Assembly: GCA_016234805.1 (NCBI GenBank)
Contig: JACRNU010000054.1
Coordinates: forward strand, 24,329-88,328
DNA from: Elusimicrobiota bacterium
GTDB lineage: Bacteria; Elusimicrobiota; Elusimicrobia; UBA1565; UBA9628
Reading direction: 5' to 3'
Length of the DNA stretch: 64,000 nt
The notes below the pieces were generated by a model. The model made no database searches. It saw nothing but the letters and a program-made list of their open reading frames with translations, and was not told the origin of the DNA. Each line of letters opens with the position of its first letter. Position 1 is the stretch's first letter. This document shows positions 2,139 to 40,347 of this stretch, piece after piece. A program made the translations under genes and the position numbers.

Positions 2139-2147
2139 TGATATAAT
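2139..2147 (+). promoter_or_regulatory. Extended -10 promoter element TGATATAAT about 9 nt upstream of the yajC ATG
   Basis: Perfect TGnTATAAT in an otherwise GC-rich intergenic region. The predicted transcription start falls at or next to the ATG, implying a leaderless or near-leaderless mRNA. Confidence 0.5.
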
Positions 2148-2156
2148 CGAGGTCCC

Positions 2157-2471
2157 ATGCAAAGCCAAGCCAATCCCATCGTCAGCCTTATCCCCATCAT
2201 CGCGATCTTCCTCATCTTCTACTTCCTGCTCATCCGTCCTCAGCAGAAGGAGGCTGCGACCCACAAAAAGATGCTCGAGGCCTTGAAGAAAGGCGACCGC
2301 GTCCTGACCAACTCCGGCTTCTACGGCGTCATCATGGGGATGAAGGGCGACGACCTCGAGGTGCGCTTCGGGGACTCCGTGAAGCTCCTCATGGCCCGCT
2401 CCGCGGTGACGAGGCTGCTCTCGAGCGAGTCGGGGATGGAGCTTTCGACGGCGAATAAGGAGAAAATCTGA
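2157..2471 (+). CDS. yajC: Preprotein translocase subunit YajC
   Basis: 104 aa with a single N-terminal TM segment and the YajC core LLIRPQQK...GDRVLTNSGFYGVI. It lies immediately upstream of secDF. Confidence 0.85.
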   Translation: MQSQANPIVSLIPIIAIFLIFYFLLIRPQQKEAATHKKMLEALKKGDRVLTNSGFYGVIMGMKGDDLEVRFGDSVKLLMARSAVTRLLSSESGMELSTANKEKI

Positions 2472-2557
2472 TGAAGCTTCGCTTTGCCCCCACAACTACG
2501 CGCCTCCCCGCGGGGGAGGCTTGTGACACCCCCGCGGGGGAGGCTTGTGAATTATGA
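2471..2557 (+). promoter_or_regulatory. Micro-ORF (28 codons, MKLRFAPTTTRLPAGEACDTPAGEACEL) spanning a tandem CCCCGCGGGGGAGGCTTGTGA hairpin; its stop/start codons overlap both neighbours (TGATG with the yajC stop, ATGA with the secD start)
   Basis: The reading frame and overlaps were read directly from the sequence. The palindrome CCTCCCCGCGGGGGAGG places a GGAGG Shine-Dalgarno about 12 nt before the secD ATG, with a complementary CCTCC in the other arm. This is copy 1 of 3 (see findings). Confidence 0.6.
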
Positions 2558-3966
2558 CAAAGCTCCAGATGAAGTGGGGCGGGGTCGGACTCCTGAGCGT
2601 GCTCGCGCTCTTCCTCCTGTACCCGAGCATCAACTGGTACTCGATGGATGCGGCCGAGCGCGAGAAGCTCGAGACCTTCAAGATGAGGCCCAAGTTCCTC
2701 GTCAACTTGGGATTGGACCTCAAGGGCGGGTCCCACCTCCTCATGGAGCTCGACATCGCCAAGCTCGACCCCAAGGCCGACATCCAGGACGCCATGGCGC
2801 GGGCCATCGAGATCATCCGCAACAGGGTGGACCAGTTCGGCGTCTCCGAGCCTCTCATCGCCCGGCAGGGCAAGCGCTGGATCGTGGTCCAGCTCCCCGG
2901 CATCTCGAACGCGGCCGCTGCCAAGGACATCGTGGGCAAGACCGCGCTCCTTGAGTTCCGCATCGTTCAGACGGGAGAGAAGGCCCAGGAGGCCCTGGGC
3001 AAGATCGCGGAGCTCGGCAACCCGTTCGTCGGCGAGTCGGTCTCCACGTCGGCGGCCAAGCTCGTGCCCCAGGGGATGGAGCTCTTCCGCGGCAAGGAGA
3101 GCCAGATCTATCTGCTGAGCTCCACGGTGCCTTTCACGGGCGCGGACCTCGAGACCGCGCGCGTCGAGACCGGCGGCAACTACGGCCTGCCGGTGGTGGC
3201 CTTCAAGTTCAAGCCCGAGAAGGGCAATGAGTTCGCGTCCTTCACCGGCGCCAACGTGCAGAAGAACATGGCCATCGTGCTCGACAGGGTCGTCTTTTCC
3301 GCGCCTGTCATCAAGCAGCGCATCACAGGCGGCTCGGGCATCATCGAAGGCGAGTTCACCATGCAGGACGCGCACGCGCTCTCCATCGTCCTGCGCGCGG
3401 GCGCCCTTCCGGCCCCGGTCAAGATCATCGAGGAGCGCACGATCGGCCCCTCCCTGGGAGAGGACTCCATCAAGGCCGGCCTCATGGCCACCGCCATCGC
3501 AGGCCTCTTCATCTTCGTCTTCATGATCGTCTACTACAAGGGCTCAGGGTTCATCGCGGACATCGCCCTGGTGCTGAACCTCGTCTTCCTCATGGCCGGG
3601 ATGGCCTACTTCGGGGCCACCCTGACCCTGCCCGGCATCGCGGGCATCATCCTGACCATCGGCATGGCCGTGGACGCCAACGTGCTGATCCTCGAGCGCA
3701 TCAAGGAGGAGCTGGCCTTGGGCAAGCCCATCCGCTTGGCCGTGGACGCCGGCTATGAGAAGGCCCTGAGCGCGATCATCGACTCGAACCTGACGACCGT
3801 GTTCACCGCCATCTTCCTGTTCCAGTTCGGCACCGGGCCCATCAAGGGGTTCGCCGTCACCCTGATGATGGGCCTCATGATCAGCATGTTCACCGCCATC
3901 TTCGTGACCAAGCTGATCTACCATACCTATCTCGCCAGCCGCGACGTGGCGGAGTTGAGCATCTGA
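2554..3966 (+). CDS. secD: Protein translocase subunit SecD
   Basis: 470 aa with an N-terminal TM, a periplasmic domain and C-terminal 6-TM bundle motifs (GIAGIILTIGMAVDANVLILERIKEE). Gene order yajC-secD-secF is conserved. Confidence 0.9.
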   Translation: MTKLQMKWGGVGLLSVLALFLLYPSINWYSMDAAEREKLETFKMRPKFLVNLGLDLKGGSHLLMELDIAKLDPKADIQDAMARAIEIIRNRVDQFGVSEPLIARQGKRWIVVQLPGISNAAAAKDIVGKTALLEFRIVQTGEKAQEALGKIAELGNPFVGESVSTSAAKLVPQGMELFRGKESQIYLLSSTVPFTGADLETARVETGGNYGLPVVAFKFKPEKGNEFASFTGANVQKNMAIVLDRVVFSAPVIKQRITGGSGIIEGEFTMQDAHALSIVLRAGALPAPVKIIEERTIGPSLGEDSIKAGLMATAIAGLFIFVFMIVYYKGSGFIADIALVLNLVFLMAGMAYFGATLTLPGIAGIILTIGMAVDANVLILERIKEELALGKPIRLAVDAGYEKALSAIIDSNLTTVFTAIFLFQFGTGPIKGFAVTLMMGLMISMFTAIFVTKLIYHTYLASRDVAELSI

Positions 3967-3968
3967 TC

Positions 3969-4913
3969 ATGCAATTCATCGGCAAGACCACCATCGACTT
4001 CGTCGGCAACCGCTGGAAGCTTTTCCTGCTTTCCGGCTTCCTTGTCGGCGGCTCTATCGTGAGCCTCGCGACCCGGGGGCTCGTGTTCGGCATCGACTTC
4101 ACGGGCGGGACCGTGGTCCAGGTCACCTTCGAAAAGCCCATGAACCTCGGCGACCTGCGCAAGGCCGTAGAGGAGTCCGGCATCCCGGACGCGTCCCTCC
4201 AGAGTTTCCCCAAGACCAACACCTTCTCCATCCGGATGAAGTCCGGGGAGGAGGCGTCCGCGGCGGACATCGAAGTGCAGGTGGCAGCCATCCAGAAGGC
4301 GGTCGGGGAAAACAAGTTCCGCATCGAGAGCCAGGAGTTCGTGGGCCCGGCCGTGGGCAAGCACCTCTACCGGCAGGCCCTGTGGGCCATCGTCCTCTCC
4401 CTGCTCGGCATCATCGTCTACATCGCGTTCCGGTTCGAGAATCCGATCTGGGGCGTGGCCGGCGTGGTCGCCATCGGCCACGATGTGCTCGCCACGCTGG
4501 GCCTGTTCTCCGTCACCGGGTGCGAGGTGGACCTGTTGATCGTCTCCGCCCTGCTGACCATCGCGGGCTACTCCATCAACGACACCATCGTCATCTTCGA
4601 CCGGATGCGCGAGCTCATGAAGCTCTACCGCCACGAGCCGCTCGACGCCACCATCAACCGGGCCGTCAACGAGACCCTGTCGCGCACCATCATCACCAAC
4701 GGCACGGTCTTCACGGTGGTCCTGATCCTGTTCCTCCTCGGCGGCAAGGTCATCCACAACTTCGCCATGGCCATGGTCTTCGGCGCGGTGGTCGGCACCT
4801 ACTCGACCATCGCCATCGCCTCGCCCATGGTATTCGAGTGGTATGTCCGGATGAAGAGGCCGGGGTCTTCACCCCAACCCGCCGGACGTCCTGCGGGCAA
4901 AGCCCGCCGATAG
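3969..4913 (+). CDS. secF: Protein translocase subunit SecF
   Basis: 314 aa with the SecF signature (GIDFTGGT, TLSRTIITNGT) directly after secD. Confidence 0.9.
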   Translation: MQFIGKTTIDFVGNRWKLFLLSGFLVGGSIVSLATRGLVFGIDFTGGTVVQVTFEKPMNLGDLRKAVEESGIPDASLQSFPKTNTFSIRMKSGEEASAADIEVQVAAIQKAVGENKFRIESQEFVGPAVGKHLYRQALWAIVLSLLGIIVYIAFRFENPIWGVAGVVAIGHDVLATLGLFSVTGCEVDLLIVSALLTIAGYSINDTIVIFDRMRELMKLYRHEPLDATINRAVNETLSRTIITNGTVFTVVLILFLLGGKVIHNFAMAMVFGAVVGTYSTIAIASPMVFEWYVRMKRPGSSPQPAGRPAGKARR

Positions 4914-4970
4914 GCAGGTGCCAGGCTTGGACGCAAGTATGGAGCTCCGGTTCAAGCCTGGCACCTGTGC
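4914..4970. repeat. Hairpin repeat GGTGCCAGGCTTGG-N-CCAAGCCTGGCACC (family copy 1)
   Basis: 14-bp near-perfect inverted arms read directly from the sequence. The same stem sequence recurs at 5607-5660 and 61660-61712. Confidence 0.8.
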
Positions 4971-4979
4971 TCCGGCAAT

Positions 4980-5606: not shown

Positions 5607-5660
5607 GGTGCCAGGCCTGGGCGCAGACAGGTCGCACCGGTCCAGACCTGGCACCTGGGC
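5607..5660. repeat. Hairpin repeat GGTGCCAGGCCTGG-N-CCAGACCTGGCACC (family copy 2)
   Basis: Same arm sequence as 4914-4970 with one transition in each arm. It lies immediately 3' of the hypothetical gene. Confidence 0.8.
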
Positions 5661-5678
5661 CTAGTTTCTCCACGCAAG

Positions 5679-7631
5679 ATGCTTAGAGCCATCGCCCCGT
5701 ATCTCGGCTACCTCTACATGACCCTGGTGGGCTGGACCACCCGGTGGCGCGTCCTGGGCGGGGAGCGCAAGGCGGGCTTGAGGCGCTCGGGCCGGCGCTT
5801 CATCTACGCGTTCTGGCACCAGCGGCAGGTCTTTTTCACCTATTCGCACCGGGGCGACAGCGCCAAGGTCCTGGTGAGCCGCAGCAGGGACGGGGAGATC
5901 ATCGCCCGCGTCATGGAGATCTCCCGCATCGGCGCGGCGCGCGGCTCGTCGAGCAGGGGGTTCACGGCCGCCCTCAAGGACATGGCGCGCACCGTGGAGG
6001 AGGGCTTCGACCTCGGCATCACTCCGGACGGGCCCAGGGGGCCGGCCCGAGAGGTCAAATCCGGGGTGGTCTTCCTTGCCCAGAAGCTGGGCATCCCCAT
6101 CCTTCCCATCGCCACTGCGCTCACGAGCAAGCTGGTGTTCAAGAAGAGTTGGGACCTCTTTCAGTTCCCCCTGCCTTTCGGCAGGGGCATCGTGGCCTAC
6201 GGGATGCCCGTCGCGGTGGGCCCGGACGACGATCCCAAGGCCAAGGCCGCGGAGGTCAAGGCGGCCTTGGACCGCGTCACGGACGAGGCGGATGCGGCCG
6301 TGCTCCTGGAGCCGTCTTTCGTCGCGGCGGCCACGGCGCGGTGCGTGGCCCTTCTCTCGACTTTGCTCGCCCCGGTCGTGGCCGCGGGCTTCGCCTTGAA
6401 GATGCTGGCGTCGCCCAGGCGCAAGCTCATGCTTCCGCTGCCCGAGGAATGGAAGGAGCGCACCGGCCGCGTCGACGCGGGCAAGCTCGCGGCCGCTCCA
6501 GCCCGGCCCGTGCTCTGGGTCCACGCGGCCTCGGTCGGCGAGGCGGCCGCGGCCCAGCTCCTCATCGAGCGCGTCCTCGGCCGGAAGGCTCCTCCCTCGG
6601 TGGTCGTCACCTGCAACACCGCGGCGGGCCGCAGCCGGGCCCTCAAGATCCCGGGAATCTCAGCCGCGTGGCTGGCCCCGCTCGACAGCCTTCCCACGGT
6701 GGGCAGGTTCCTCGACGCGGTCAGGCCATACGCACTGCTCCTCATCGAGACCGAGCTCTGGCCAGGGATGCTCGAGGCCGCGTTCCGGCGCGGTCTGAAG
6801 GTCGGCCTGGCCAACGGGCGGCTTTCTCCAAGGAGCTTCGGAGCGTACCGGCTCTTCAAGCCCCTCATCAGCCCGTTCCTCAGGCGTCTGGACCGCGTCG
6901 CGGCCCAGACCCCGTCGGACGCTGAGCGTTTCCTGGCCTTGGGCGCGGACCGGGACAGGGTGGCCGTGTGCGGCAACATGAAGTTCGACCTCATCGCTCC
7001 GCCGGCGGGTCTTGACCGGACCCGGGAGTCCCTGCGCCGGCTCGGATGGGAGGCCAGCCCTCTGCTGGTGGCGGGCAGCACGCATCCCGTGGAGGAGGAG
7101 GCCGTGGTGGCCGCCTTCCAGCAGCTCCGACGCAGCCATCCAGGCCTTCGGCTCGTGCTCGCTCCGAGGCACCCGGAGCGCGGCGCGGACGCGGCAGCCA
7201 TGCTCACTCGCTTGGGCGTGCGCTTCGCGCTCTGGTCGAGGCTGGGAGAGGGACTGGGGGACCGCGAGTGCCTGCTGATCGATGTCATGGGCGTCCTGCC
7301 CGCGTGGTACGCTTTCGCCTCGGTCTGTTTCGTGGGCGGGACCCTGGTCCCGGTCGGAGGCCACAACCTCCTCGAGCCCGCCGCGCACGGCAAGCCTTCC
7401 GTGTTCGGCCCCCACACCTTCCACACCGAGCAGTCAGCCCTGGCCCTTGCCAGGTCGGGCGGCGGAGTGAGGGTGCGGGGCCCAGAAGAACTGGCTGCCG
7501 CGTTCGGCAAGCTCCTTGCCGAGCCCGAATTCAGCAGGAAGGCGGGAGAGAAGGCTCGGGAGACCCTGGCCGGCCTGCAGGGCGGCATCGAGAGGACCCT
7601 CGCCCACCTGGGTCCCTGCCTCGAAGTATAG
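5679..7631 (+). CDS. waaA: Fusion protein: DUF374 lysophospholipid-acyltransferase-like domain + 3-deoxy-D-manno-octulosonic acid (Kdo) transferase
   Basis: The N-terminal ~220 aa (FIYAFWHQRQ...SRDGEI...ITPDGPRGP) resemble DUF374. The C-terminal ~425 aa (VLWVHAASVGEA...SPLLVAGSTHP...RLVLAPRHPER...FVGGTLVPVGGHNLLEPAA) resemble GT30 Kdo transferase. Confidence 0.8.
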   Translation: MLRAIAPYLGYLYMTLVGWTTRWRVLGGERKAGLRRSGRRFIYAFWHQRQVFFTYSHRGDSAKVLVSRSRDGEIIARVMEISRIGAARGSSSRGFTAALKDMARTVEEGFDLGITPDGPRGPAREVKSGVVFLAQKLGIPILPIATALTSKLVFKKSWDLFQFPLPFGRGIVAYGMPVAVGPDDDPKAKAAEVKAALDRVTDEADAAVLLEPSFVAAATARCVALLSTLLAPVVAAGFALKMLASPRRKLMLPLPEEWKERTGRVDAGKLAAAPARPVLWVHAASVGEAAAAQLLIERVLGRKAPPSVVVTCNTAAGRSRALKIPGISAAWLAPLDSLPTVGRFLDAVRPYALLLIETELWPGMLEAAFRRGLKVGLANGRLSPRSFGAYRLFKPLISPFLRRLDRVAAQTPSDAERFLALGADRDRVAVCGNMKFDLIAPPAGLDRTRESLRRLGWEASPLLVAGSTHPVEEEAVVAAFQQLRRSHPGLRLVLAPRHPERGADAAAMLTRLGVRFALWSRLGEGLGDRECLLIDVMGVLPAWYAFASVCFVGGTLVPVGGHNLLEPAAHGKPSVFGPHTFHTEQSALALARSGGGVRVRGPEELAAAFGKLLAEPEFSRKAGEKARETLAGLQGGIERTLAHLGPCLEV

Positions 7632-7705
7632 CCGTTTTAGTACAATCAGCGGATGACCGAGCCTGGCGAGGAAATGGTCGATTCCGAGGTCGTGGGAGAG
7701 AGACC

Positions 7706-8299
7706 ATGACGCTCTCCGCCTCGTCGTTGACTCTCATCATCTGCGCGGCCTCTGCCGCGCTCCCGGCTGTCACGCTGGCTGCCCCGGCCGCGGGTTCGAA
7801 GTCCTCGGCCAGGAAGGAATCCCTTAAGACCATGGAGCTCAAGAGTCCCGCATTCGAGAACAACGGCCCCATCCCCAAGGCGCACACCTGCTCCGGGGAG
7901 GATCTCTCCCCTGCCCTGGCCTGGTCCGGGGTTCCCAAAGGCGCCAAGTCCCTGGCCCTCATCATGGACGATCCCGACGCTCCGGTCGGCACCTGGGTGC
8001 ACTGGGTGCTCTACGACCTCCCTGCGGATTCCACGGGCCTGCCCCAGGGCTTCCCCAGGACCGAGGCTTTCCCCGACGGGTCCAGGCACGGCCTCTGCTG
8101 GGGCGTCGAGGAATTCAGCCGTGTGGGCTACAACGGGCCCTGCCCTCCTCCTGGCAAGCAGCACCGGTACGAGTTCAAGCTGTACGCGCTCAAGGAGCCG
8201 CTCGGCCTGCCCCCCAAGGCGACCAAGGCTGAAGTGCTCAAGGCCATGGAGGGCCGCGTTCTGGGTCAGGCGCGGCTCATCGGCACCTTCAAGCGATAG
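7706..8299 (+). CDS. YbhB/YbcL-family PEBP (Raf-kinase-inhibitor-like) protein, secreted
   Basis: Signal peptide followed by the PEBP core motifs (IMDDPDAP...WVHWVLYDLP...GYNGPCPPPGKQHRYEFKLYAL). The start was taken at the ATG at 7706, in frame with the longer listed ORF. Confidence 0.8.
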   Translation: MTLSASSLTLIICAASAALPAVTLAAPAAGSKSSARKESLKTMELKSPAFENNGPIPKAHTCSGEDLSPALAWSGVPKGAKSLALIMDDPDAPVGTWVHWVLYDLPADSTGLPQGFPRTEAFPDGSRHGLCWGVEEFSRVGYNGPCPPPGKQHRYEFKLYALKEPLGLPPKATKAEVLKAMEGRVLGQARLIGTFKR

Positions 8300-8304
8300 G
8301 CGCC

Positions 8305-10098
8305 GTGAAGAGACTCATCCCCTGGCTCGTCGCGGCCGCGACCTTCCTCACCTTCATCCCGGCCCTGGAAAGCCTGTTCGTGAACTGGGACGACACCGCC
8401 AATTTCCTGGAGAACCCGGACTTCAAGAACGCCGGGTTGGGTGAGCTGCGTTGGATGTTCTCCACCTTCCACCTGGCGCATTACCAGCCCGTGACCTGGC
8501 TGACTTGGGGGTTGGACAAGGCGCTTTGGGGCACGAACCCCTTCGGCTACCACCTGACGAACCTCGTCATCCATTGCGCCACGGCCGCGATCTTCTGCCT
8601 GCTATGCCGCCGCGTCCTCGACCGCGTCATGCCTGAGAGTTCGGATTTCCACCCGTACGCCGCGGCTTGGGCCGCCCTGCTTTTCGCGGTGCACCCATTG
8701 CGGGTCGAGGCCGTGGCATGGGCCACGGAGCGCAGGGAGCTCCTGTCCTCGTTCCTGTTCCTCTCGGCCGCGGCCCTGTATCTGAGGCCTCGCGGCCGAA
8801 GCCATGAGGCCCCGAAGCCTGGGCTGCATTGGGTCCTGGTCCTGGGGGCCTTGGCCATGCTGTCGAACGTCCGCACGGTCTCCCTGCCCCTGGCCCTGCT
8901 TCTGCTCGACTACTATCCCCTCGGCAGGCTCTCGGCAACGAGGCCGGGCGCTGACCCGGGAGTCTGGAAGGAAAAGGCCCCTTTCTTCCTGCTGGCTTTC
9001 GGCGTGGGACTGATCGGCCTCCTGGCCCAGGCCACCACTTCCACCCTCATCCCGGTGGCCAAGGCCGGGTTCGTCTCAAGAGCGGTCCAGTCTTGCTTCG
9101 GGGTGGGCTTCTACCTGTGGAAATCGCTGGCTCCGTTCGGGCTGTCGAATTGGTACGGCGATTCCTATCTCGAAGCGCGCGCTCCTGTGGCCGTGCTCGG
9201 AGCGGCGGCAGCGGTCTTCTTGACCGCCGGGCTCGCTTGGCGGGCGAAGACCGGCCGTGGGAAAGCCCTGCTCGCGTGCTGGCTCTGGTATCTGGTCACC
9301 CTTTTCCCCTCCCTGGGGATCGTCAAGTCCGGCCGTCAGATCGTGGCGGATCGTTACAGCTATCTTCCCTGCATCGCCTTCGCCCTGCTGGCCGCGGCCG
9401 GTCTGTGCAAGCTGAGGACCCTCTCAAGGGAAGGCCATGTCAGGCGCTGGGTCTTCATCGGGGTCGCGGCGGGCGCCGTGGCATGCCTGCCGCTGCTCTC
9501 CGGCCTGACCTGGCAACAGTGCCGCGTATGGAACGACTCGGTCAGCCTGTGGTCAAGGGCTTTTGCCATCGACCCTCGCTCCGTGTTCATCCGCACCAAC
9601 TTCGGCATCGCGCTTCTCCAGGCCAGGAGATTCCAGGAGGCGGTGAAGGCCTTCGAGACCATCACCGAGGACGCGGTGGATGGGATGGACCCGGATTCCG
9701 GCAGGTCGTTCTTCAGCTTCATCCGGTTCCTTTCTGCCATGGCGCACAACAACTGGGGCGTGGATCTCATGACCCGTGGCCGGCCCGTCGAGGCCGTGCC
9801 TCATTTTCAGAAGGCCCTGTTCTACAATCCGGAGTCGGAGAGAGGCCACTTCAGCCTGGGTCTGGCCCTGCTGCGCTCCGGAAGGCTCGATGAAGCCATC
9901 CCGAGGTTCGAGGCCGCGGTGAAGGCCTCTCCGGATCTTCTGGATGGCAGGCTCCATCTCGGCGAGGCATTGGCCCTCAAGGGGAGGAGGAAGGACGCGG
10001 AAGCCCAGTTTCGAGCTGTTCTGCGTCTGGCTCCGGACCCGATGAGAGCCGCCAAAGCCCGGGAAGGACTGCGGCGGCTCGGCCGGGTGGATCGATGA
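8305..10098 (+). CDS. TMTC-like (DUF1736 / GT-C fold) polytopic membrane protein with C-terminal TPR repeats; putative protein O-glycosyl/mannosyltransferase (paralog 1)
   Basis: About 11 TM segments with a DD motif in the first loop (FVNWDDTANFLENP) and a WMFSTFHLAHYQPV motif. The C-terminal third is TPR-like (YNPESERGHFSLGLALLRSGRLDEAI...). Confidence 0.6.
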   Translation: MKRLIPWLVAAATFLTFIPALESLFVNWDDTANFLENPDFKNAGLGELRWMFSTFHLAHYQPVTWLTWGLDKALWGTNPFGYHLTNLVIHCATAAIFCLLCRRVLDRVMPESSDFHPYAAAWAALLFAVHPLRVEAVAWATERRELLSSFLFLSAAALYLRPRGRSHEAPKPGLHWVLVLGALAMLSNVRTVSLPLALLLLDYYPLGRLSATRPGADPGVWKEKAPFFLLAFGVGLIGLLAQATTSTLIPVAKAGFVSRAVQSCFGVGFYLWKSLAPFGLSNWYGDSYLEARAPVAVLGAAAAVFLTAGLAWRAKTGRGKALLACWLWYLVTLFPSLGIVKSGRQIVADRYSYLPCIAFALLAAAGLCKLRTLSREGHVRRWVFIGVAAGAVACLPLLSGLTWQQCRVWNDSVSLWSRAFAIDPRSVFIRTNFGIALLQARRFQEAVKAFETITEDAVDGMDPDSGRSFFSFIRFLSAMAHNNWGVDLMTRGRPVEAVPHFQKALFYNPESERGHFSLGLALLRSGRLDEAIPRFEAAVKASPDLLDGRLHLGEALALKGRRKDAEAQFRAVLRLAPDPMRAAKAREGLRRLGRVDR

Positions 10099-11783
10099 AG
10101 CGTCCGTCCCGCGCGGCCTGGCGGCAAAGGACCACCGTCCCCGAAGGCAGCGGGCAGGGGCCCGCAGTCCCCGCAGGGGGCGCTGGACGTCCTCCTTTCG
10201 CCGGAGGGGGCTGGTGGGCCTGTCTGGTCCTGGGAACCGCGGTCGCGTCCGTCTTCAGCGGGGTCCTTTCGAACGGGTTCTTCGACTTCGACGATTACGA
10301 GTGCTTCGTGGACAACCCCATGGTCCACGGCCTGGGCTGGACGCAGCTCAAGTGGATGTTCACGTCCCTGCACCTGACGGCCTATCAGCCGCTGGCCTGG
10401 CTGGCGGGCGCCCTGCTCTGGACGATCGCGGGCCCGCTGCCCGGCCCATTCCATCTGCTGAGCCTCGTCCTGCACATCGCCAACGCGATCCTGCTCTGCG
10501 TCCTGCTGTCCCGGATCCTGGAGCGGGCCGCGCCCTCGACCGAGGTCCGGGAGAGGCTGCTCGCGGCCGGAGCGGCCTCCCTCCTCTGGTCCATCCACCC
10601 CACGAAAGCCGCGGCCGTGGCCTGGGCCACCAAGGTCTCGGACCTGATGGCGGCGTTCTTCTTCCTCTGCGCATGTCTCTCCTACCTGGGGCGCGGTCAA
10701 GGCCGGAGGCCGAGCGCCCCGACCGCCTCCGAGGATGGCGTTGGCTGGTCGGGGCGCGGGCAGGAACAGGGACGGGCGTGGCGCCCCGGCATCCGGGCTT
10801 CGGCCTGGCTGTTCCTGGCCTCGGGTCTGTCGCATTGGACCGGCATCGCCTTTCCGCTGGTCCTGATCCTCCTGGATTTCTATCCGCTCAAGAGGCTCGG
10901 GGCCGATCCCGTGGGATGGTTCAAGGGGCCTTCGGCCAAGGTGTGGTTCGAGAAATGGCCTTTCCTCGCCATCGCCATAGGCCTCGCTGTCATCAACGGC
11001 CATGGCAAGGCTCAAGTCAAGGGCATCGAGCTTCTCTACGGCCTGACCCATCCCATGGAAGCGTCCCTGGCCGCGGCTTTCTATCTCCGAAAGGTCCTGT
11101 TCCCGACGGATCTCGCGGTCCTCTATGCCATCAACGGCCCCGCAAGCTCCGCGGGCCTCAATCCTGGAGCCGCGGCGCTCCTCATCCTCGTCGCGACCCT
11201 CTATGCCGCCTCGGTCTGGCGGTCCGCTCCCCTGGCCCTCGGAGGCTGGCTGTTCTGGCTCGCAGGGCTTCTTCCATCCTTCGCCTCTTCAGCCGAGGGT
11301 ATCATCTACGGACAGGATATCTATGCCTATATACCATCCATGGGCTTGGCGCTCCTGCTCGCCTGGGCCTTGTCGTCTGTCATGGGGTTCGAAGGGCCGG
11401 CCCCCTCCGGGGACCTGCCGCCCTTGCGGCAGGGCCCGCTGTCCCGGATGAAGAGGCTCCTGCTGCTCACCATGGCGCTGGGCTCGACGGCCGCTGCCTC
11501 GGCGATCTTCGTTCCGATGAGCATGCGGCAGACCGAGCTCTGGCGCGAGCCCGGAGCTGTGTGGAGGCAGACCCTTGCCGCGGACCCCGACCTGTGGATC
11601 GCGCACTACAACCTTGCCGCCCTGCTCGTGCGGCAGGGCCGCTGGGACGAGTCCAGGCCGCACTTCCAGGAGGCGCTGCGTCTGAGGCCCGGCGCAGAGG
11701 GATGGAAGGAAGACATCTCGGCCGCGCTTCGCCAAATGCCGTCTTCCTCGCCGGGGCGGAAACCGGGCGTCCCGGCGAAATGA
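10095..11783 (+). CDS. TMTC-like GT-C/TPR membrane protein (paralog 2)
   Basis: Architecture and motifs are shared with 8305-10098 (FDFDDYECFVDNP, WMFTSLHLTAYQPLAW). It carries the 57-bp repeat family near both its 5' and 3' ends, so the true start may be internal or non-ATG. Confidence 0.55.
   Translation: MKRPSRAAWRQRTTVPEGSGQGPAVPAGGAGRPPFAGGGWWACLVLGTAVASVFSGVLSNGFFDFDDYECFVDNPMVHGLGWTQLKWMFTSLHLTAYQPLAWLAGALLWTIAGPLPGPFHLLSLVLHIANAILLCVLLSRILERAAPSTEVRERLLAAGAASLLWSIHPTKAAAVAWATKVSDLMAAFFFLCACLSYLGRGQGRRPSAPTASEDGVGWSGRGQEQGRAWRPGIRASAWLFLASGLSHWTGIAFPLVLILLDFYPLKRLGADPVGWFKGPSAKVWFEKWPFLAIAIGLAVINGHGKAQVKGIELLYGLTHPMEASLAAAFYLRKVLFPTDLAVLYAINGPASSAGLNPGAAALLILVATLYAASVWRSAPLALGGWLFWLAGLLPSFASSAEGIIYGQDIYAYIPSMGLALLLAWALSSVMGFEGPAPSGDLPPLRQGPLSRMKRLLLLTMALGSTAAASAIFVPMSMRQTELWREPGAVWRQTLAADPDLWIAHYNLAALLVRQGRWDESRPHFQEALRLRPGAEGWKEDISAALRQMPSSSPGRKPGVPAK
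10152..10214. repeat. 57-bp structured repeat family, degenerate copy A (inside the 5' end of the TMTC-like gene)
   Basis: GTCCCCGCAGGGGGCGCTGGACGTCCTCCTTTCGCCGGAGGGGGCTGG aligns to the canonical unit CCTGGCGCAAGGGCGCCAGGTCCCCGGAGGGCAGATGTCCTCCGCTCCCGGAGGGGGC. Confidence 0.6.
11395..11443. repeat. 57-bp repeat family, shortened copy B (reverse orientation, inside the 3' end of the TMTC-like gene)
   Basis: The reverse complement reads CCTGCCGCAAGGGCGGCAGGTCCCCGGAGGGGGCC. It is translated in frame as PSGDLPPLRQGP. Confidence 0.65.
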
Positions 11784-11789
11784 TATAAT
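11781..11789 (+). promoter_or_regulatory. Extended -10 element TGATATAAT overlapping the stop of the TMTC-like gene, upstream of the GT9 gene
   Basis: Perfect TGnTATAAT, the second of three identical copies in the window. Confidence 0.4.
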
Positions 11790-11835
11790 CCCCTCCTCCG
11801 CTCCCGCCGCGGATGCCGCGACGGTCGTCGTCGAC

Positions 11836-13365
11836 ATGCCCAATAAGATCCTGGTCATCCGGCTCTCCTCGCTGGGGGATGTGGTGCTCACCGCTCCCGT
11901 GTTCCGCAGCCTCAAGGCGGCTTGGCCGGACTGCTCCATCTCCGTCCTGGTCAAGCCCCAGTTCGCTGGCGTGCTCAAAGGCAATCCGCACCTCAGCGAG
12001 ATCATCCCGTTCCGCGGCCTGAGGGACGCGGTCTCGACCATACGGTCGCGCGGGTTCACCCATCTCCTGGACCTCCACGCTACGACGCGGTCCTTCCTCA
12101 TCCGTTCCATGTGCGGCGTGCCCGAGGTCTCGGTATATAAGAAGGACGCGCTGGCACGGACGCTCTATGTCAGCTTCGGCTTGCGCTCGCCCGTGCTGGA
12201 GAAGCACACCATCGAGCGCTACCTCGAGGCTCTGTCGCCTTGGGGAGTGCGGTCGAGCGACCTCTCCCTCTCGTTCGGGGACTATGGCGAAGCGGGCCCT
12301 GTCGGGGAGACGGGGACCGAGCCAGGGGCGCGCCCGGCCAGCATCCTCGTCATCCAGACCGCTTTCCTCGGGGACTGCCTCCTGACCCTGCCTCTCCTGC
12401 GCGAGCTCAAGGCCCTCTCCCCCTCCTCCCGCGTCACGGTCCTGACCACGGAGCGCACGGAGGAGGTCTTCTCCGGGAGCGGTTGGGTCGACGAGACCAT
12501 CGTGGACCGCAAGCGGGGCGAGCACTCCGGCCTGTTCGGGACCCTGGTCATGGCGCGCAGGCTCCGTTCCAGGGGATTCGACTGCGCCGTGATACCGCAC
12601 CGCTCCTTCCGCAGCGCCTTCCTGGCGTGGCGCTCCGGGATCCGCGAGCGCATCGGCTTCTCCACCAGCGCGGGAAGCTTCCTCCTCACGCGGCAGGTCC
12701 CGTTCGCCTGGCACATGCACGACTTGGAGCGCAATCTCGCGCTCCTGCTGCCCCTGAAGGCCGGATTGAAGCTGCGGCCTGACGAGTCCCGCTACCTCGA
12801 GCCGGATATCGGCGGAGCCGCGGCAGCGCGGCTTCAGGCCGCCGGGATCGGCCCCCTTGACCGCGTTGTGGCCGTGCATCCCGGGTCGACCTGGCCTACC
12901 AAGAAGTGGTTCGAGCATCGTTTCCGCGACCTCTGCGGCCGCCTGGTGAAAGACGGCTTCAAGGTGGTCATCGTGGGCGGCGCGGCTGACAGGGACTTGT
13001 GCGCCAGGCTCGCTTCAGGCTCAGGGTCCGCGGACTTCTCCGGGGGCGCGCTTTCCGAGCTCAAGAGCCTGATGGGCAGGCTCTCCCTCTTCGTGACCAA
13101 TGACTCCGGCCCCATGCACGTTTCCGCCGCGTCCGGGGTGCCCACCCTGGCGATCTTCGGCCCCACCACGCGTGAGTTGGGTTTCTTCCCCTACGGTCCC
13201 GGCCATCGGGTCCTGGAGGCGGACCTCGCCTGCCGCCCCTGCGCCCTGCACGGCGGCAGGTCGTGTCCCGAGGGCCACTTCCTGTGCATGGGCCTCATCA
13301 CCACGGACCTCGCCCACCGCGCCGCCCGCGAGATGCTAGCGGCTAAGGAGCCGCTGTCCCTGTAG
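11836..13365 (+). CDS. Tandem-domain glycosyltransferase family 9 (two ADP-heptose:LPS heptosyltransferase-like modules in one polypeptide)
   Basis: Two GT9 N-terminal signatures are present (ILVIRLSSLGDVVLTAPVFRSLK and ILVIQTAFLGDCLLTLPLLRELK). A single C-terminal donor-binding motif follows (FVTNDSGPMHVSAASGVPTLAIFGPTT). Confidence 0.75.
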   Translation: MPNKILVIRLSSLGDVVLTAPVFRSLKAAWPDCSISVLVKPQFAGVLKGNPHLSEIIPFRGLRDAVSTIRSRGFTHLLDLHATTRSFLIRSMCGVPEVSVYKKDALARTLYVSFGLRSPVLEKHTIERYLEALSPWGVRSSDLSLSFGDYGEAGPVGETGTEPGARPASILVIQTAFLGDCLLTLPLLRELKALSPSSRVTVLTTERTEEVFSGSGWVDETIVDRKRGEHSGLFGTLVMARRLRSRGFDCAVIPHRSFRSAFLAWRSGIRERIGFSTSAGSFLLTRQVPFAWHMHDLERNLALLLPLKAGLKLRPDESRYLEPDIGGAAAARLQAAGIGPLDRVVAVHPGSTWPTKKWFEHRFRDLCGRLVKDGFKVVIVGGAADRDLCARLASGSGSADFSGGALSELKSLMGRLSLFVTNDSGPMHVSAASGVPTLAIFGPTTRELGFFPYGPGHRVLEADLACRPCALHGGRSCPEGHFLCMGLITTDLAHRAAREMLAAKEPLSL

Positions 13366-13374
13366 GCGAGGCCG

Positions 13375-13455: not shown

Positions 13456-13472
13456 TGGCGGGGCTGTTGCCA

Positions 13473-13514
13473 AGATATCCACAAACCTATCTTAAGATAT
13501 GTTTGTGGATATCT
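13473..13514. terminator. AT-rich perfect palindrome AGATATCCACAAAC-(CTATCTTAAGATAT)-GTTTGTGGATATCT between convergent genes; candidate bidirectional terminator or protein-binding site
   Basis: 14-bp perfect inverted arms with a spacer that is itself palindromic (ATCTTAAGAT). Local GC is far below the window average. Confidence 0.5.
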
Positions 13515-13562
13515 CGGGGGCCCGTGAAAATTTCTGGTGAAGGACTGCCTGCCGCCGCGGGG

Positions 13563-15221
13563 TTACTTCGCGCCTTTCACCGGGGCCGCGCAGCGTGAGT
13601 CCAGGTAGACCTTGCGCAGGAAGACCCCGAGGAAGAAGGACACGAGCGCGGAGCTGATGAAGTCCAGGTCGCAGGTATGGAAGGTCAGGGTGAACATGAG
13701 TCCCATGACGACCGCGGTCGCGATGTTCACCTTTCGCAGGAAGTCCCTGCCCAGGGCCGCGAAGTGCTCGGGCCCGAGCATGTACTCCGTCACATCCCCG
13801 GTGGCCATGGTCTCGCGTTCCTCGGGCAGCATGTGTGAGCCCATGAAGCTCAGGAAGTAGGCCGCGGTGCCGATGAGGATGAGCATGGCGATGGACATCT
13901 CGGCTCCGGACGCGGCCGGGATGCCGAATATGCCCTGCTGCAGGCTGCGCATGAACCCGTATTCGAGCCCGTGGGTGTAGAGCCAGGAGCCCGAGGAGTA
14001 GGAGAAGGAGTAGGCCAGGTTCGCCACGGACATGAAGCCCGCGAACAGGGCCCCGGCCGCCTTGGCGGGGATGACCGCGCCCACGAGGCTGAAGGTGCTC
14101 ATGCGGGTGAACCCGAGGAACACGGACAGGACGAAGCCGTAGAGGCACATGAATCCGAGCCGCACCTGAAGGGACGATAGGAAAGGCATAGCCGCGTTCA
14201 TGGCTCCGCAGATCTGGGTGAACCAGGGCTCGATCGTGAGGTACTGGGTGAGGTTGGCAAGCATGCTGAGCACGATCACGATCTGGAAGACGCGCTTCAA
14301 GCCCCACCGGTCCTGCCAGCGCGTGCCGTATTTAGCGAAGAGGAGGACGCCGACGAAGTAGCCCGCGTTGCTGAACCCGTCCGAGATGCCGATCTGGGTC
14401 TGGGTGAACTTGAGGGTCTCGATCAAGTAGTTCGTCCAGAGCGCGCCCATGGCGGGCTGGAAGTGGAACATGAAATAGAAGACGATGATCCACATGACCG
14501 GCCCGGTGTTGAGGCCGTTCCAGAAGTTGAGGACCGACTCCTTGAGAGGGATGGTGGCGGCCTTATCCTTGGGCAGGAAGAGGACCACGACCAGGACCAT
14601 GAGAGGCACTACCCCCAGGCCGACCATGAGCCAGTTGAAGGGCGCGTGGTCCGCGATCCACCCGCCTGAGACGGCTGAGAAGATGCCTGTCCCGTAGATG
14701 GCGGCCCAGCAGATGGCCTGGTTCAAGCCCACGGTGGTGGACTTGGACTGCCCGGATTCCTTGGCTTCCGAGTCCCCCTCGACCACGGTGGCCCGATCCA
14801 CGGACACGTCGGTCGCTGCCAGGATCACGGACAGGGCGAACATGTACCAGAAGAACACCATCACGCTGTGGTCCACCAGGGGGGTCAGCAGGAAGAAGGC
14901 GGTCGAGGCCGCGAGCAGGAAGGTGAGGATGACCTTGGTCTTGCCGTAGGCGTCGATGAGGAAGCCCAGGATGGGCTTGAAGCTCCATGCCAGGTAGGAC
15001 TGGGAGAAGAGGTTCTGGGTCGCGGCCTCGGTGAGCTTGTAGTCCACCGTGAAGTGCTTGAAGAATGGCTGGTAGGTGATGCCCTGGAACGGGTTGGCGA
15101 TGCCCTGCAGGACGTACTCGAGGGCGAAGACCACTTTCATGGGGTTCATGCCCAGGAAGGTGCGTCCGCTGTCCGCGGGCTTTTCCGCCTGCGGTTCCTT
15201 GACCGGCGCGCCCTGGTTCAT
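13563..15221 (-). CDS. MFS-type transporter (BT1 / folate-biopterin-transporter-like)
   Basis: 552 aa with about 12 TM segments. The family call rests on overall architecture and weak motif resemblance only. Confidence 0.45.
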   Translation of the reverse strand: MNQGAPVKEPQAEKPADSGRTFLGMNPMKVVFALEYVLQGIANPFQGITYQPFFKHFTVDYKLTEAATQNLFSQSYLAWSFKPILGFLIDAYGKTKVILTFLLAASTAFFLLTPLVDHSVMVFFWYMFALSVILAATDVSVDRATVVEGDSEAKESGQSKSTTVGLNQAICWAAIYGTGIFSAVSGGWIADHAPFNWLMVGLGVVPLMVLVVVLFLPKDKAATIPLKESVLNFWNGLNTGPVMWIIVFYFMFHFQPAMGALWTNYLIETLKFTQTQIGISDGFSNAGYFVGVLLFAKYGTRWQDRWGLKRVFQIVIVLSMLANLTQYLTIEPWFTQICGAMNAAMPFLSSLQVRLGFMCLYGFVLSVFLGFTRMSTFSLVGAVIPAKAAGALFAGFMSVANLAYSFSYSSGSWLYTHGLEYGFMRSLQQGIFGIPAASGAEMSIAMLILIGTAAYFLSFMGSHMLPEERETMATGDVTEYMLGPEHFAALGRDFLRKVNIATAVVMGLMFTLTFHTCDLDFISSALVSFFLGVFLRKVYLDSRCAAPVKGAK

Positions 15222-15293
15222 GTTTCTCCCTGGTCGAAAAAGCTATGGAGAAGCTACCAAATCGTGACAGTGAAGGATATATCTTCCGGTAAA

Positions 15294-15302
15294 TGATAGA
15301 AT
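15294..15302 (+). promoter_or_regulatory. Extended -10-like element TGATAGAAT about 10 nt upstream of the GT4 ATG (15313)
   Basis: TGnTAnAAT with one mismatch to TATAAT, in the divergent intergenic region. It would give a near-leaderless transcript. Confidence 0.35.
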
Positions 15303-15312
15303 CCAAGGGTTG

Positions 15313-16362
15313 ATGCGAATCCTTCACATCGAGGACGAGGTTTGGGATTCCGGGATCGCCCATTATGCCCTCACCCTGGCCGGGGCCTTGAAGTCCAGAG
15401 GGCATGAGGTCCTTTTCTGGGGCAGACCTGGGAGCGTGCCCTGCCGCAAGGCCCGGGAACTGGGCCTGGAAGTCTTCGAGGTCTCCAAGCCGTGGTTGAG
15501 CCTGCCCCGGCTCAGGGCCGCGGTCCGGGAACTCGGGGTGGAGGTCATCAACAGCCACACAGGCTCCGCCCATTCCCTGGCTGCCGCTGCTGCCGCTGGG
15601 CTCAAGGTGCCTGTGGTTCGCACTCGCGGCGATGCCCGGCCGCCTTCCGGCAACGCGTTGGCCAGGGCCTTGGCCAAGCGCACCGCGGCCTTCATCGCCG
15701 CGAACTCCGTCATCAAGGCCCAGCTCGAGCAGGCTTATCCCGGCTCCAGGGTCGAGGTCGTTTTCCAGGGACTGGCATCTTCCGAGCTTTCTCCCCTGCC
15801 CGAAGACCGGTCCGTGGGCATGGTGGGGAGGCTCGATCCGGTGAAGGGGCATGAGACGCTCATCAACGCCGCGCTCAGGGTCTTGGCCGAATTCCCCGCC
15901 ACGCGGTTCCGGGCTGCGGGAGCCGGCACGGCCGAGCGGGACGTGCTCCTGAGGGAAACGGTGAAGAAGGCCGGTCTCGAGGGCACGGTCGAGTTCCTCG
16001 GCTTCGTGCCGTCGGTGGATGGGTTCATCAAAGGCTGCCGGATCGGGGTCGTGGCCTCGCTCGGCTCCGAGGCGGTCTCCCGCGCCGCGCTCGAGTGGAT
16101 GTCCCATGGCCGGCCCCTGGTCGCGACCAGGGTGGGCTGTCTGCCGGACTTGGTGGAAGATGGGGTCACGGGCATCCTCGTTCCTCCCGGGGACTCCGGC
16201 GCCCTGGCCGACGCCGTGACGCTCCTGTTCCGTGAGCCGGGCCGCGCCGCTGCCATGGGGGCCAAGGCGAGAGTGCGTTTCGAGTCCCGCTTCTGCCTGG
16301 ACCGGTTCGCTGACGACACTGAAAGGATCTATCGTGACCTCCTGCACCGTCTACCATCTTGA
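15313..16362 (+). CDS. Glycosyltransferase family 4 (RfaG/WaaG-like)
   Basis: GT4 N-terminal sugar-binding motifs (ILHIEDEVWDSGIAHYALTLAGAL) and C-terminal motifs (E...GRPLVATRVGCLPDLVEDGVTGILVPPGDS). The ATG at 15313 is preferred over the TTG at 15310. Confidence 0.8.
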   Translation: MRILHIEDEVWDSGIAHYALTLAGALKSRGHEVLFWGRPGSVPCRKARELGLEVFEVSKPWLSLPRLRAAVRELGVEVINSHTGSAHSLAAAAAAGLKVPVVRTRGDARPPSGNALARALAKRTAAFIAANSVIKAQLEQAYPGSRVEVVFQGLASSELSPLPEDRSVGMVGRLDPVKGHETLINAALRVLAEFPATRFRAAGAGTAERDVLLRETVKKAGLEGTVEFLGFVPSVDGFIKGCRIGVVASLGSEAVSRAALEWMSHGRPLVATRVGCLPDLVEDGVTGILVPPGDSGALADAVTLLFREPGRAAAMGAKARVRFESRFCLDRFADDTERIYRDLLHRLPS

Positions 16363-21118: not shown

Positions 21119-21178
21119 CCGCATGATATCCCGCATGGAATCCGACAGTGTTTCCCGGATGTATTTCTGGAGGATTCC

Positions 21179-22045
21179 ATGCGGAAAGGTTTGACGCTGG
21201 TCGTTCTCATGAAGAGCCTCCTGATGTCGTCCCTGGTATCCTTCATGATGTCCCCCTGCCTCGCCGCGGACATCTTCACCGCCTCCTTCACCGACCCGCG
21301 CGAGCTCATCGCGCCGGGGGTGGAGCCTTCGTCCGGCGCGGCCGTGCCGGGGTTCCCGGAGAAGCTGGTCTTCGACGTTTCCTGGGGCCTCATCGGGGTC
21401 GGACAGTCCACGCTGGAGATGAGCCGCATGGTGGATTTCAACGGCCGGCCCGCCTACGAGATCGTCTCCAGGGCCTACTCTAACGGCTTCTGCAACACCT
21501 TCTATAAGGTCCGCGATGAGAACTACGCCTGGCTCGACGCGGCCAGCCTGAGTTCCCTGGGCTACCTGAAGAACCTCCGGGAGGGAAACTTCTACCGGGA
21601 CGAGTGGGTGCTCTTCGACCATGCTTCCAAGCGCTACCTGGCCAAGTGGGCCGGCCGGGATCACAACTACAGCGTGCGGCAGGGCACCATCCCGGTTCCG
21701 GTGCAGGACATCCTTTCGAGCATGTATTACATCAGGACACAGGAGCTCAAGGAGGGCGCTGAGATCATCCTCGACGTCAACACGAAGGAGAATTGGCCGC
21801 TCGTGGTGAAGGTGGTCAAGAGGACCAAGGTGAAGGTCCCGGCCGGCAAGTTCGACACTTTTCTCCTCGAGCCCTTCATGCGCAAGGAGGGCATCTTCGT
21901 GCAGAAGGGCAAGCGCCTGCGGATCTGGGTGACCGCGGACGAGCGCAAGATCCCTGTCCTCATGAAGGTCGAGGTCTTCTTCGGCCACGTCACCGCGGCC
22001 TTGTCCACCATCGGAGACGGGACCCCGGCGCGCGGCAGGGAATGA
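21179..22045 (+). CDS. DUF3108-domain secreted protein
   Basis: Signal peptide plus resemblance to the DUF3108 beta-barrel-like fold. Confidence 0.6.
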   Translation: MRKGLTLVVLMKSLLMSSLVSFMMSPCLAADIFTASFTDPRELIAPGVEPSSGAAVPGFPEKLVFDVSWGLIGVGQSTLEMSRMVDFNGRPAYEIVSRAYSNGFCNTFYKVRDENYAWLDAASLSSLGYLKNLREGNFYRDEWVLFDHASKRYLAKWAGRDHNYSVRQGTIPVPVQDILSSMYYIRTQELKEGAEIILDVNTKENWPLVVKVVKRTKVKVPAGKFDTFLLEPFMRKEGIFVQKGKRLRIWVTADERKIPVLMKVEVFFGHVTAALSTIGDGTPARGRE

Positions 22046-22051
22046 TATAAT
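22043..22051 (+). promoter_or_regulatory. Extended -10 element TGATATAAT overlapping the DUF3108 stop, immediately 5' of the hldE start
   Basis: Third perfect copy of TGATATAATC. The predicted transcription start coincides with the in-frame ATG at 22059, implying a leaderless mRNA. Confidence 0.45.
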
Positions 22052-22052
22052 C

Positions 22053-23072
22053 ATGCCCATGAAGAAGCATCCCGCGGTGCTGACGGCCCGAGAACGCCGC
22101 CGCCTGAAGGGCTATGTCCGGCAGTTCTCCGGCAAGAGGGTCCTGGTGGTCGGGGACCTCATGCTCGATGAGTTCATCCGCGGGGCGGTGCACCGCATCT
22201 CCCCGGAGGCGCCGGTCCCGGTCGTGCAAGTCCGGGCCGAGAGCTACGTCCCGGGCGGGGCGGGCAACGTGGCCCGCAACCTGGCCGCCCTCGGGGCGGG
22301 CGTCGTGGTCGTGGGCGTGGTGGGCGAGGACGCGGCCGCGGAGCGCCTGCGCTCGGATTTCGCGGGCCACGGCATCGACGTGGCCGGCCTGTTGTCGGAC
22401 TCCGGGAGGGTGACCTCCCAGAAGTGCCGGATCATCGCGGAGCACCAGCAAGTCGTCCGGTTCGACCGGGAGACCACGGGCCCGCTGTCCGGCGCCTCGG
22501 AGCGCGAACTCCTGCGCCGCATCCCCGCGGCCGTGGACCGCGCACACGCCGTGGTCCTCTCCGACTACGGCAAGGGCGTTGTGACGCCCGCGGTCGTCAA
22601 AGCCGTCCTCTCCCGGGCCAAAGGCCGGCGATTGCCGGTCACCGTGGACCCCAAGCCGGAGAACTTCAACCTCTACCGCGGCGTCACCTGCCTGACGCCC
22701 AACGTGCACGAGGCTTGGGCCGGGATGCGGCGCCATCCCGAGCCGGGAAGAGGGGCTCTCGACGCGCTGGGACGGAGCATCCTCTCAGGGCTCGGATGCG
22801 CGTCCCTCATCATCACCCGCGGCCCCGAAGGCATGAGCCTCTTCAAGCGGGGCGGGGCCGGAGTCATCCACATCCCCACCGAGGCGCGCGAGGTCTACGA
22901 CGTGACCGGGGCGGGCGATACGGTCATCTCCGTGCTCACCCTGGGCCTGGCCAGCGGAGCCTCCATCGAGGCCGCCGCGGTCGTGGCCAACTGCGCTGCG
23001 GGCATCGTGGTGGGCAAGCTCGGCACCGCCACGGTCTCATCGGAGGAGCTCATCAAGGCCCTGGCCCAATGA
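22053..23072 (+). CDS. hldE: D-glycero-beta-D-manno-heptose-7-phosphate kinase (HldE/RfaE domain I only, PfkB family)
   Basis: Motifs VLVVGDLMLDEFIRGAVHRISPEAPVPVV and DVTGAGDTVISVL. No adenylyltransferase domain is attached. The true start may be the second ATG at 22059. Confidence 0.8.
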   Translation: MPMKKHPAVLTARERRRLKGYVRQFSGKRVLVVGDLMLDEFIRGAVHRISPEAPVPVVQVRAESYVPGGAGNVARNLAALGAGVVVVGVVGEDAAAERLRSDFAGHGIDVAGLLSDSGRVTSQKCRIIAEHQQVVRFDRETTGPLSGASERELLRRIPAAVDRAHAVVLSDYGKGVVTPAVVKAVLSRAKGRRLPVTVDPKPENFNLYRGVTCLTPNVHEAWAGMRRHPEPGRGALDALGRSILSGLGCASLIITRGPEGMSLFKRGGAGVIHIPTEAREVYDVTGAGDTVISVLTLGLASGASIEAAAVVANCAAGIVVGKLGTATVSSEELIKALAQ

Positions 23073-37269: not shown

Positions 37270-37293
37270 GGCGCTATATTACAATAAAACCCG

Positions 37294-38621: not shown

Positions 38622-38693
38622 GTATCCTTGGGATTATAGCATGACCGAGCTTAAGCGAGGAAATGGTAGCGTCAATGGCCGTAGGAGGCAACC

Positions 38694-40316: not shown

Positions 40317-40347
40317 GCCTGGAGGCGGCCGGTGGAGCCGTCGCGCG

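Follow-up and report, generated by a model that had tools for sequence, protein, structure and literature searches.

The 10-mer TGATATAATC, which occurs at three gene junctions in a 64,000-nt stretch of an Elusimicrobiota genome (GenBank assembly GCA_016234805.1, contig JACRNU010000054.1, positions 24,329 to 88,328; the whole stretch is referred to below as the window), is probably a promoter element of the extended -10 type. The 10-mer and its close variants would be recognized by the housekeeping sigma-70-type RNA polymerase through a TGn-extended hexamer, independently of any -35 element, and would place some transcription starts so near the start codon that the genes are expressed from leaderless or near-leaderless mRNAs. 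Evidence for this interpretation comes from the number and placement of the copies, the composition of the box, its spacing to start codons, and its conservation at orthologous junctions.

Exact copies of TGATATAATC are located at 2139-2148, 11781-11790 and 22043-22052, all on the + strand. The recount confirmed the positions given in the initial annotation of this DNA, together with its one-mismatch copy TGATAGAATC at 15294 (+), and disclosed a second one-mismatch copy, TGCTATAATC at 38632-38641 (-), which had escaped it. All five sites are found 8-47 nt upstream of the start of a co-oriented gene. The GC content of the window is 66%, close to the ~68% assumed before, and only 0.009 copies of the 10-mer are expected from base composition (Poisson probability of at least three copies, 1.3e-7). 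Not a single copy appeared in any of 100 dinucleotide-preserving shuffles, in line with the previous assertion that a chance origin is unlikely. AT-rich 10-mers are generally enriched upstream of starts (25% vs 2.4% of all window positions); under the harsher null model based on such 10-mers, the upstream placement of 5/5 sites has P ~ 1e-3. No match was obtained in an Rfam scan of the whole window or in a tRNA scan, leaving the sites unexplained by any known RNA element.

Composition of the sites points to the promoter class. The hexamer is identical to TATAAT at 2142, 11784, 22046 and 38638 (-) and matches it in 5/6 positions at 15297, with T1, A2 and T6 always present, while TGA or TGC precedes it at all five sites. 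In the boxes at 11781 and 22043, TGA doubles as the stop codon of the gene upstream, which codes for a TPR protein and a DUF3108 protein, respectively. A consensus promoter scan requiring at least 4/6 matches in each of the two hexamers reported none of the boxes. The best match to TTGACA at 15-19 nt spacing is 2-3/6, which is the level of random positions, and a family-weighted profile built from relatives showed no -35 signal, only A-richness just upstream of TG. Boxes of this kind are best read as predicted -35-independent TGn-extended -10 promoters, the class to which the initial annotation had assigned them. The one strong leaderless-type promoter without TGn in the window, putatively driving a type II secretion/type IV pilus (T2SS/T4P) ATPase gene, is accompanied by a -35-like hexamer, TTGAAC, 17 nt upstream.

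Spacing is given as d, which is counted from the hexamer's final T up to the start codon's first base, with the canonical transcription start at d = 7. The values for the five sites are listed in Table 1, and the spacings calculated earlier at yajC, at hldE and at the first GT4 gene (GT4a) proved correct. Among the three exact copies, canonical leaderless spacing is found at hldE alone. Of the two candidate ATG codons of hldE, the one at 22053 is too close to the box for transcription from it. The choice of ATG 22059, already preferred in the initial annotation, is supported by two related loci: AGG replaces the first ATG in L003, and in L002, too, the gene begins at the second one. GT4a likely starts at ATG 15313, because TTG 15310 is replaced by CTG in L003. 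Search for a Shine-Dalgarno (SD) sequence on the predicted transcript was negative for hldE as well as for GT4a. In E. coli, transcription starts are selected at positions 6-10 after the -10 element, with a preference for a pyrimidine at -1 and a purine at +1. By analogy, the CA dinucleotides at 22058-22059 (hldE) and 2156-2157 (yajC) are plausible transcription starts.

To place these sites in a comparative frame, the protein of the GT9 heptosyltransferase gene (GT9a) was used in a scan that gave 79 loci. The best 49 of them are Elusimicrobiota metagenome-assembled genomes (MAGs), mostly from groundwater and soil and mostly of 62-76% GC, in which gene order is largely kept; protein identity ranges from 81% (L001-L003) down to ~53%. 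A metagenome scan with UvrA, aimed at the second half of the window, yielded only matches of at most 59% identity in unrelated taxa. At the GT9a junction, a hexamer with no more than one mismatch from TATAAT is present in 39/43 Elusimicrobiota loci, in 36 of them with TGn, and its usual form is gAAATGATATAATc. At the hldE junction, 19/21 relatives carry a TGnTAtaaT-type box 7-17 nt before the ATG, with TGn in 17/19, in forms such as TGTTATGAT, TGTTATAAT, TGATATAAT and similar. Depending on the relative, the DUF3108 reading frame terminates on the TG of the box, within its hexamer or upstream of the box; preservation of the box in spite of this change of register indicates selection on DNA and not on protein. 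When 694 kb of sequences of relatives were scanned on both strands, 41/41 perfect TGnTATAAT sites were located at GT9a, hldE or yajC junctions, on the gene strand. Conservation reaches past the hexamer, to AAA upstream and C downstream. The box is retained at these junctions even where its flanks and the reading frames ahead of it diverge.

The same box precedes yajC in the relative L040, 14 bp before the ATG, while L002 has no box at this junction and keeps cgaggtcccATG; in most other lineages, a TGCTAaGAT box is found 25-40 nt upstream, along with a strong AAGGAG. The GT4a box is restricted to the window, L002 and L003, which are exactly the loci with an MFS gene inserted ahead of GT4a (3/3). 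In loci without the insertion, GT4a directly follows GT9a and the box was found in 0 of more than 30. A box at the point where the insertion split the operon is what the promoter interpretation predicts. The inserted MFS/BT1-family gene (13563-15221) lies on the opposite strand between GT9a and GT4a, and was observed in these three loci only.

As a separate observation, the palindrome CGTACG, often as CCGTACGCGCGCG, recurs in many relatives immediately after the -10 box of the two heptose-pathway genes and is absent from the window. It was found in hldE leaders of L013, L017, L018, L020, L042, L048 and L059, and in GT9a leaders of L004, L007, L008, L016, L022, L025 and L030. This motif may be a shared operator or an RNA element.

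We have also addressed the question of how general the leaderless placement is. Each TATAAT-like hexamer close to the 5' end of a gene was assigned its distance to the in-frame start codon that follows. Control hexamers of the same composition overlapped real boxes, and neighbouring distances in a histogram deduplicated by family were used as the null instead. The raw histogram of the relatives peaks at d = 6-7, with many of the sites belonging to GT9a orthologues. After clustering by family, the peak for TATAAT with at most one mismatch is at d = 7 (9/28 families), and for any TAnnnT the same distance is represented by 14/74 families vs about 3 per neighbouring position. Families in the peak are diverse, and many of their proteins have N-terminal signal peptides, which supports the assigned start codons.

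In the window, 50 gene starts were curated. TAnnnT is positioned at d = 7 from the starts at 37269 (-), 47813 (-) and 61583 (-), all of them unambiguous and without SD; in the case of 37269, an in-frame stop 9 nt upstream leaves no other choice. Distances of d = 8-12 were observed for hldE, uvrA (GTG 43950), yajC, GT4a and the hexapeptide transferase gene, with uvrA (8 bp), yajC (9 bp) and GT4a (10 bp) being borderline for a leaderless gene. A further seven promoters that can be recognised are predicted to be leadered, which makes about half of the recognisable ones: GT9a (d = 47), the OmpR-type regulator gene at 53303 (with SD), the PEBP gene at 7706, the radical SAM gene at 47885, the open reading frame (ORF) at 32033 (-), the MFS gene at 15221 (-) and the MshEN-domain gene at 42326 (-). 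SD-like 4-mers peak 5-8 nt before the curated starts, in agreement with the ~46% of genes with SD motifs in the class Elusimicrobia (PMC10783764). Coexistence of SD-led and leaderless-type starts suggests that leaderless usage is frequent, and not systematic as claimed in the initial annotation. The leaderless reading itself is supported in part, by the peak at d = 7 in the lineage and by hldE, but canonical spacing is confined to a single exact copy and about half of the recognisable promoters are predicted to be leadered.

Two of the curated starts differ from those of the longest ORF. The uvrA gene most likely starts at GTG 43950 and not where the longest ORF does (the stretch concerned is 43752-43950). 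The protein translated from this codon begins with MDKI, as E. coli UvrA does, and ATP-binding (AAA/P-loop) domain matches extend from about residue 3. Similarly, ATG 53303 (MPKILMVE..., SD GAGGAA) is the most likely start of the OmpR-type regulator, in place of the longest-ORF start (stretch 53219-53303). GTG 53261, located 4 bp past a TATAAT, was considered as a leaderless start of this gene and rejected, as this would place the beginning of the receiver domain no earlier than residue 18.

From these features we infer that the boxes act as promoters, and also where transcription starts and how the mRNAs are translated, as follows. In a background of 66% GC, near-consensus boxes with a wider consensus of roughly AAAnTGnTAtAAT would stand out, three of which happen to share the same 10 bases. 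They would function as internal or operon-start promoters set against the end of the upstream gene or overlapping it, with no terminator in between, and would direct transcription from 6-9 nt downstream of the hexamer. The hldE mRNA would thus begin at AUG 22059 or 1 nt before it, and be truly leaderless. Leaders of yajC and GT4a, with a predicted length of ~0-4 nt, or 0-3 nt at yajC, would have no room for an SD site, and GT9a would have a conventional leader of ~40 nt. Translation of leaderless and very short-leader mRNAs would rely on the 5'-terminal start codon being recognized directly; on mRNA that reads through from upstream, coupling or, at yajC, the GAGG could still support translation.

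Several points weigh against this interpretation. The spacing of 9 bp at yajC exceeds the canonical 6-7 bp (PMC12340547), and so does the 10 bp between the hexamer and the ATG of GT4a. A GAGG motif lies 4 nt before the yajC ATG and is conserved in L002, where the box is missing, and most yajC orthologues are leadered, with the strong AAGGAG mentioned above. Because of the GAGG retained in L002 and SD-led starts in most lineages, yajC is the weakest leaderless case; its GAGG precedes the predicted transcription start and would be carried by read-through mRNA, from which yajC may also be translated. The exact copy at 11781 is not leaderless, and the predicted leader of GT9a contains no SD. This leader folds no more stably than shuffled sequences (z = 0.41) and shows no unusual structure. 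Terminator-like sites were not found ahead of the boxes, and read-through from upstream could therefore supply most of the mRNA. Furthermore, genes were called from codon-position GC (GC3) with starts curated by hand, and the comparative set represents one neighbourhood, ~20 kb per genome, with a small sample of families (28-74).

The spacings of 9-10 bp, the conserved GAGG and the lack of terminators, as well as the stop codons of upstream genes overlapping the boxes, would all be accommodated if the boxes were real promoters but yajC and GT4a were expressed mainly from longer read-through or upstream transcripts, by way of GAGG, coupling or reinitiation, and proximity of boxes to starts merely reflected compact packing. 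We regard this explanation as rather unlikely on the whole. It could plausibly hold for yajC, but is unlikely to hold for GT4a, where no upstream gene has the same orientation. Given the divergent MFS gene, transcription of GT4a must start within an intergenic region of 91 nt, and the only promoter-like element there gives a leader of ~4 nt. The peak at d = 7 shared by many families also speaks against longer transcripts, as do the hldE orthologues that keep the box (19/21), in which no SD is found between the box and the ATG.

Restriction of all perfect sites in relatives to GT9, hldE or yajC junctions, conservation extending past the hexamer, and CGTACG shared after the box at hldE and GT9a in many relatives could also indicate that the conserved 14-15-mer gAAATGATATAATc is, or overlaps, an operator of a dedicated regulator of heptose/lipopolysaccharide-core and envelope genes. 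This is quite improbable, as the conserved core is no palindrome and coincides with the extended -10 consensus of sigma-70, and the pattern AAAnTGnTAnAAT also precedes the unrelated uvrA, hexapeptide transferase and radical SAM genes in the window. All loci were collected around GT9a, which makes the apparent gene restriction partly a sampling effect. An origin of the copies from a dispersed repeat or mobile element, or from chance AT-rich sequence at junctions, is suggested by the identity of three 10-mers and by the concentration of AT-rich 10-mers upstream of genes; a dispersed repeat had been named as one refuting outcome in the initial annotation. In an alignment of six sites with 40 nt on either side, conservation is confined to AAATGATATAATC, and the flanks, unrelated beyond it, speak against a repeat. 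Together with the shuffling results, the strict co-orientation and the conservation of position in dozens of lineages, this makes such an origin hardly credible.

A broader interpretation can be proposed tentatively, and with more doubt than that of the individual boxes. In high-GC Elusimicrobiota, a -35-independent near-consensus -10 element with TGn and an A-tract might be the main type of promoter, with about half of the transcription units leaderless or nearly so, and the same gene might switch between leaderless and leadered states among lineages. The GT9 heptosyltransferase gene is leaderless-type in ~20 lineages and leadered in the clade of the window, and the situation is reversed for yajC. 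In these ~20 lineages, GT9a starts at a conserved TTG 5 nt past TGATATAAT, with an in-frame TAA inside the hexamer (loci L009, L013, L015, L017-L021, L023, L024, L035, L042, L043 and L059 are among them; the TTG is ~20 nt upstream of the start of the match). This arrangement would imply a predicted mRNA that is initiated at UUG and is leaderless or has a leader of 1 nt, and thus leaderless translation from UUG. Efficient leaderless translation initiated at UUG is unusual in E. coli and mycobacteria.

Table 1. Predicted promoter boxes and associated genes in the window (d, spacing as defined in the text)
Feature	Position	Strand	Associated start	Remark
Extended -10 TGATATAATC	2139-2148 (hexamer 2142-2147)	+	yajC ATG 2157, d = 10	6 nt past H+-PPase stop; 9 bp hexamer to ATG
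Extended -10 TGATATAATC	11781-11790 (hexamer 11784-11789)	+	GT9a ATG 11836, d = 47	46 bp hexamer to ATG; TGA ends TPR gene 10095-11783
Extended -10 TGATAGAATC	15294-15303 (hexamer 15297-15302)	+	GT4a ATG 15313, d = 11; TTG 15310, d = 8	Divergent intergenic region shared with MFS gene
Extended -10 TGATATAATC	22043-22052 (hexamer 22046-22051)	+	hldE ATG 22059, d = 8; ATG 22053, d = 2	7 bp to ATG 22059; TGA ends DUF3108 gene
Extended -10 TGCTATAATC	38632-38641	-	Hexapeptide-repeat transferase gene 38097-38621, ATG 38621, d = 12	11 bp hexamer to ATG
Extended -10 TGGTAGAAT	43933-43941	+	uvrA GTG 43950 (coding sequence to 46772)	8 bp before GTG; AAAA before the box
TGTTAATCT box	47820-47828	-	Secreted peptidase-MA gene 46875-47813, ATG 47813	6 bp before ATG; canonical leaderless spacing
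TATACT hexamer	61590-61595	-	T2SS/T4P ATPase gene 59835-61583, ATG 61583	6 bp before ATG; without TGn
TAATAT hexamer	37276-37281	-	Single-domain response regulator gene 36901-37269, ATG 37269	6 bp before ATG; no SD
H+-pyrophosphatase (H+-PPase) gene	9-2132			Pfam
yajC	2157-2471	+		Pfam
secD, secF	2554-3966, 3969-4913			Pfam
DUF374 plus Kdo transferase	5679-7631			Pfam
Two TPR protein genes	8305-10098, 10095-11783			Pfam
GT9 heptosyltransferase gene (GT9a)	11836-13365	+		Pfam
MFS transporter gene	13563-15221	-		Pfam
First GT4 gene (GT4a)	15313-16362	+		Pfam; followed by GT4, GT2, deacetylase, GT9 and LpxK (start 20042) genes
DUF3108 gene	21179-22045	+		Pfam
HldE kinase domain gene (hldE)	22053/22059-23072	+		Pfam

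Some additional features were noticed during inspection of the window. A perfect palindrome of high GC content, CCTCCCCGCGGGGGAGG, lies in the yajC-secD intergenic region (2503-2553), together with a directly repeated ccccgcgggggaggcttgtga encompassing the SD of secD (GGAGG); these may form an attenuator or a hairpin sequestering the SD. In the apparent gap after the Kdo-transferase gene, we read from the sequence a gene for a putative secreted PEBP/YbhB-like protein of 197 aa (7706-8299, +), hidden in a longer spurious ORF (7046-8299) and having TACAAT 60 nt upstream, at 7641. The segment 47814-47884 is a compact, putative divergent promoter region of only 71 nt: on the - strand, TGTTAATCT precedes the peptidase ATG by 6 bp, and on the + strand TGGTAAAAT precedes the radical SAM ATG 47885 by 17 bp. 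Positions 40000-44000 have a lower GC content (0.59-0.60 vs 0.66) and harbour, in addition to small ORFs, a gene for an MshEN-domain protein (41148-42326, -); this segment may be a foreign island.

Among the papers of the library searched in full text, none dealt with leaderless genes, promoters or transcription starts of Elusimicrobiota. If confirmed, the arrangement described here would add this phylum, which has almost no cultured members, to the lineages with promoters set against start codons. Annotation of gene starts in such MAGs would be affected, as illustrated by hldE (22059 and not 22053) and uvrA (GTG 43950 and not the longest ORF), and gene finders that assume SD-led starts would mis-call genes that are first in their operons. 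In addition, heterologous expression or reporter studies in Elusimicrobiota would have a ready minimal promoter consensus at their disposal. Switching of GT9 and yajC between leaderless and leadered states, if true, would provide a natural series for studying the evolution of translation-initiation modes.

The architecture itself is known from Deinococcus and Actinobacteria, and the window represents a new example of it at the level of the phylum, with no new mechanism. In extended -10 promoters of E. coli, and in Gram-positive promoters with the "-16 region" TRTGn, TG compensates for a missing -35 element. The boxes in the window resemble both in having TG one base upstream of the hexamer. 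They differ from the Gram-positive TRTG in the A-rich sequence ahead of TG (AAAnTG), and the extended -10 looks like the rule among the recognisable promoters.

A Pribnow-like box directly upstream of start codons is an accepted computational signature of bacterial leaderless genes ("TA-led" genes in PMC3160421; group C in PMC6028130). Leaderless genes of Deinococcus-Thermus have been described by de Groot et al. 2014, as cited in PMC6028130, and in D. radiodurans a -10 motif 6-7 bp from the ORF, without a -35, was experimentally shown to suffice as a promoter of leaderless genes (PMC12340547). The window shares with D. radiodurans as well as T. thermophilus the TAnnnT-type box about 6-7 bp from the start, usually without a -35 and without an SD, coexistence with SD-led genes, and the possibility of correcting annotated starts, as done here for hldE. 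Unlike the degenerate TAnnnT typical of high-GC Deinococcus, and usually the only form seen in high-GC lineages, the boxes studied here combine a full TATAAT with TGn and an A-rich stretch upstream. They also differ in belonging to the phylum Elusimicrobiota, in several spacings of 8-11 bp instead of 6-7 bp, and in being predictions from sequence. Group C of GeneMarkS-2 is dominated by Actinobacteria and Deinococcus-Thermus (PMC6028130). Similarity to this group and to TA-led genes, as in M. tuberculosis and Streptomyces, is seen in the Pribnow-like peak about 10 nt upstream of first-in-operon starts, with internal genes being SD-led (PMC6028130, PMC3160421, PMC3898074). The share of leaderless operons in group C, estimated at 25-50%, is similar to the approximate half of recognisable promoters in the window.

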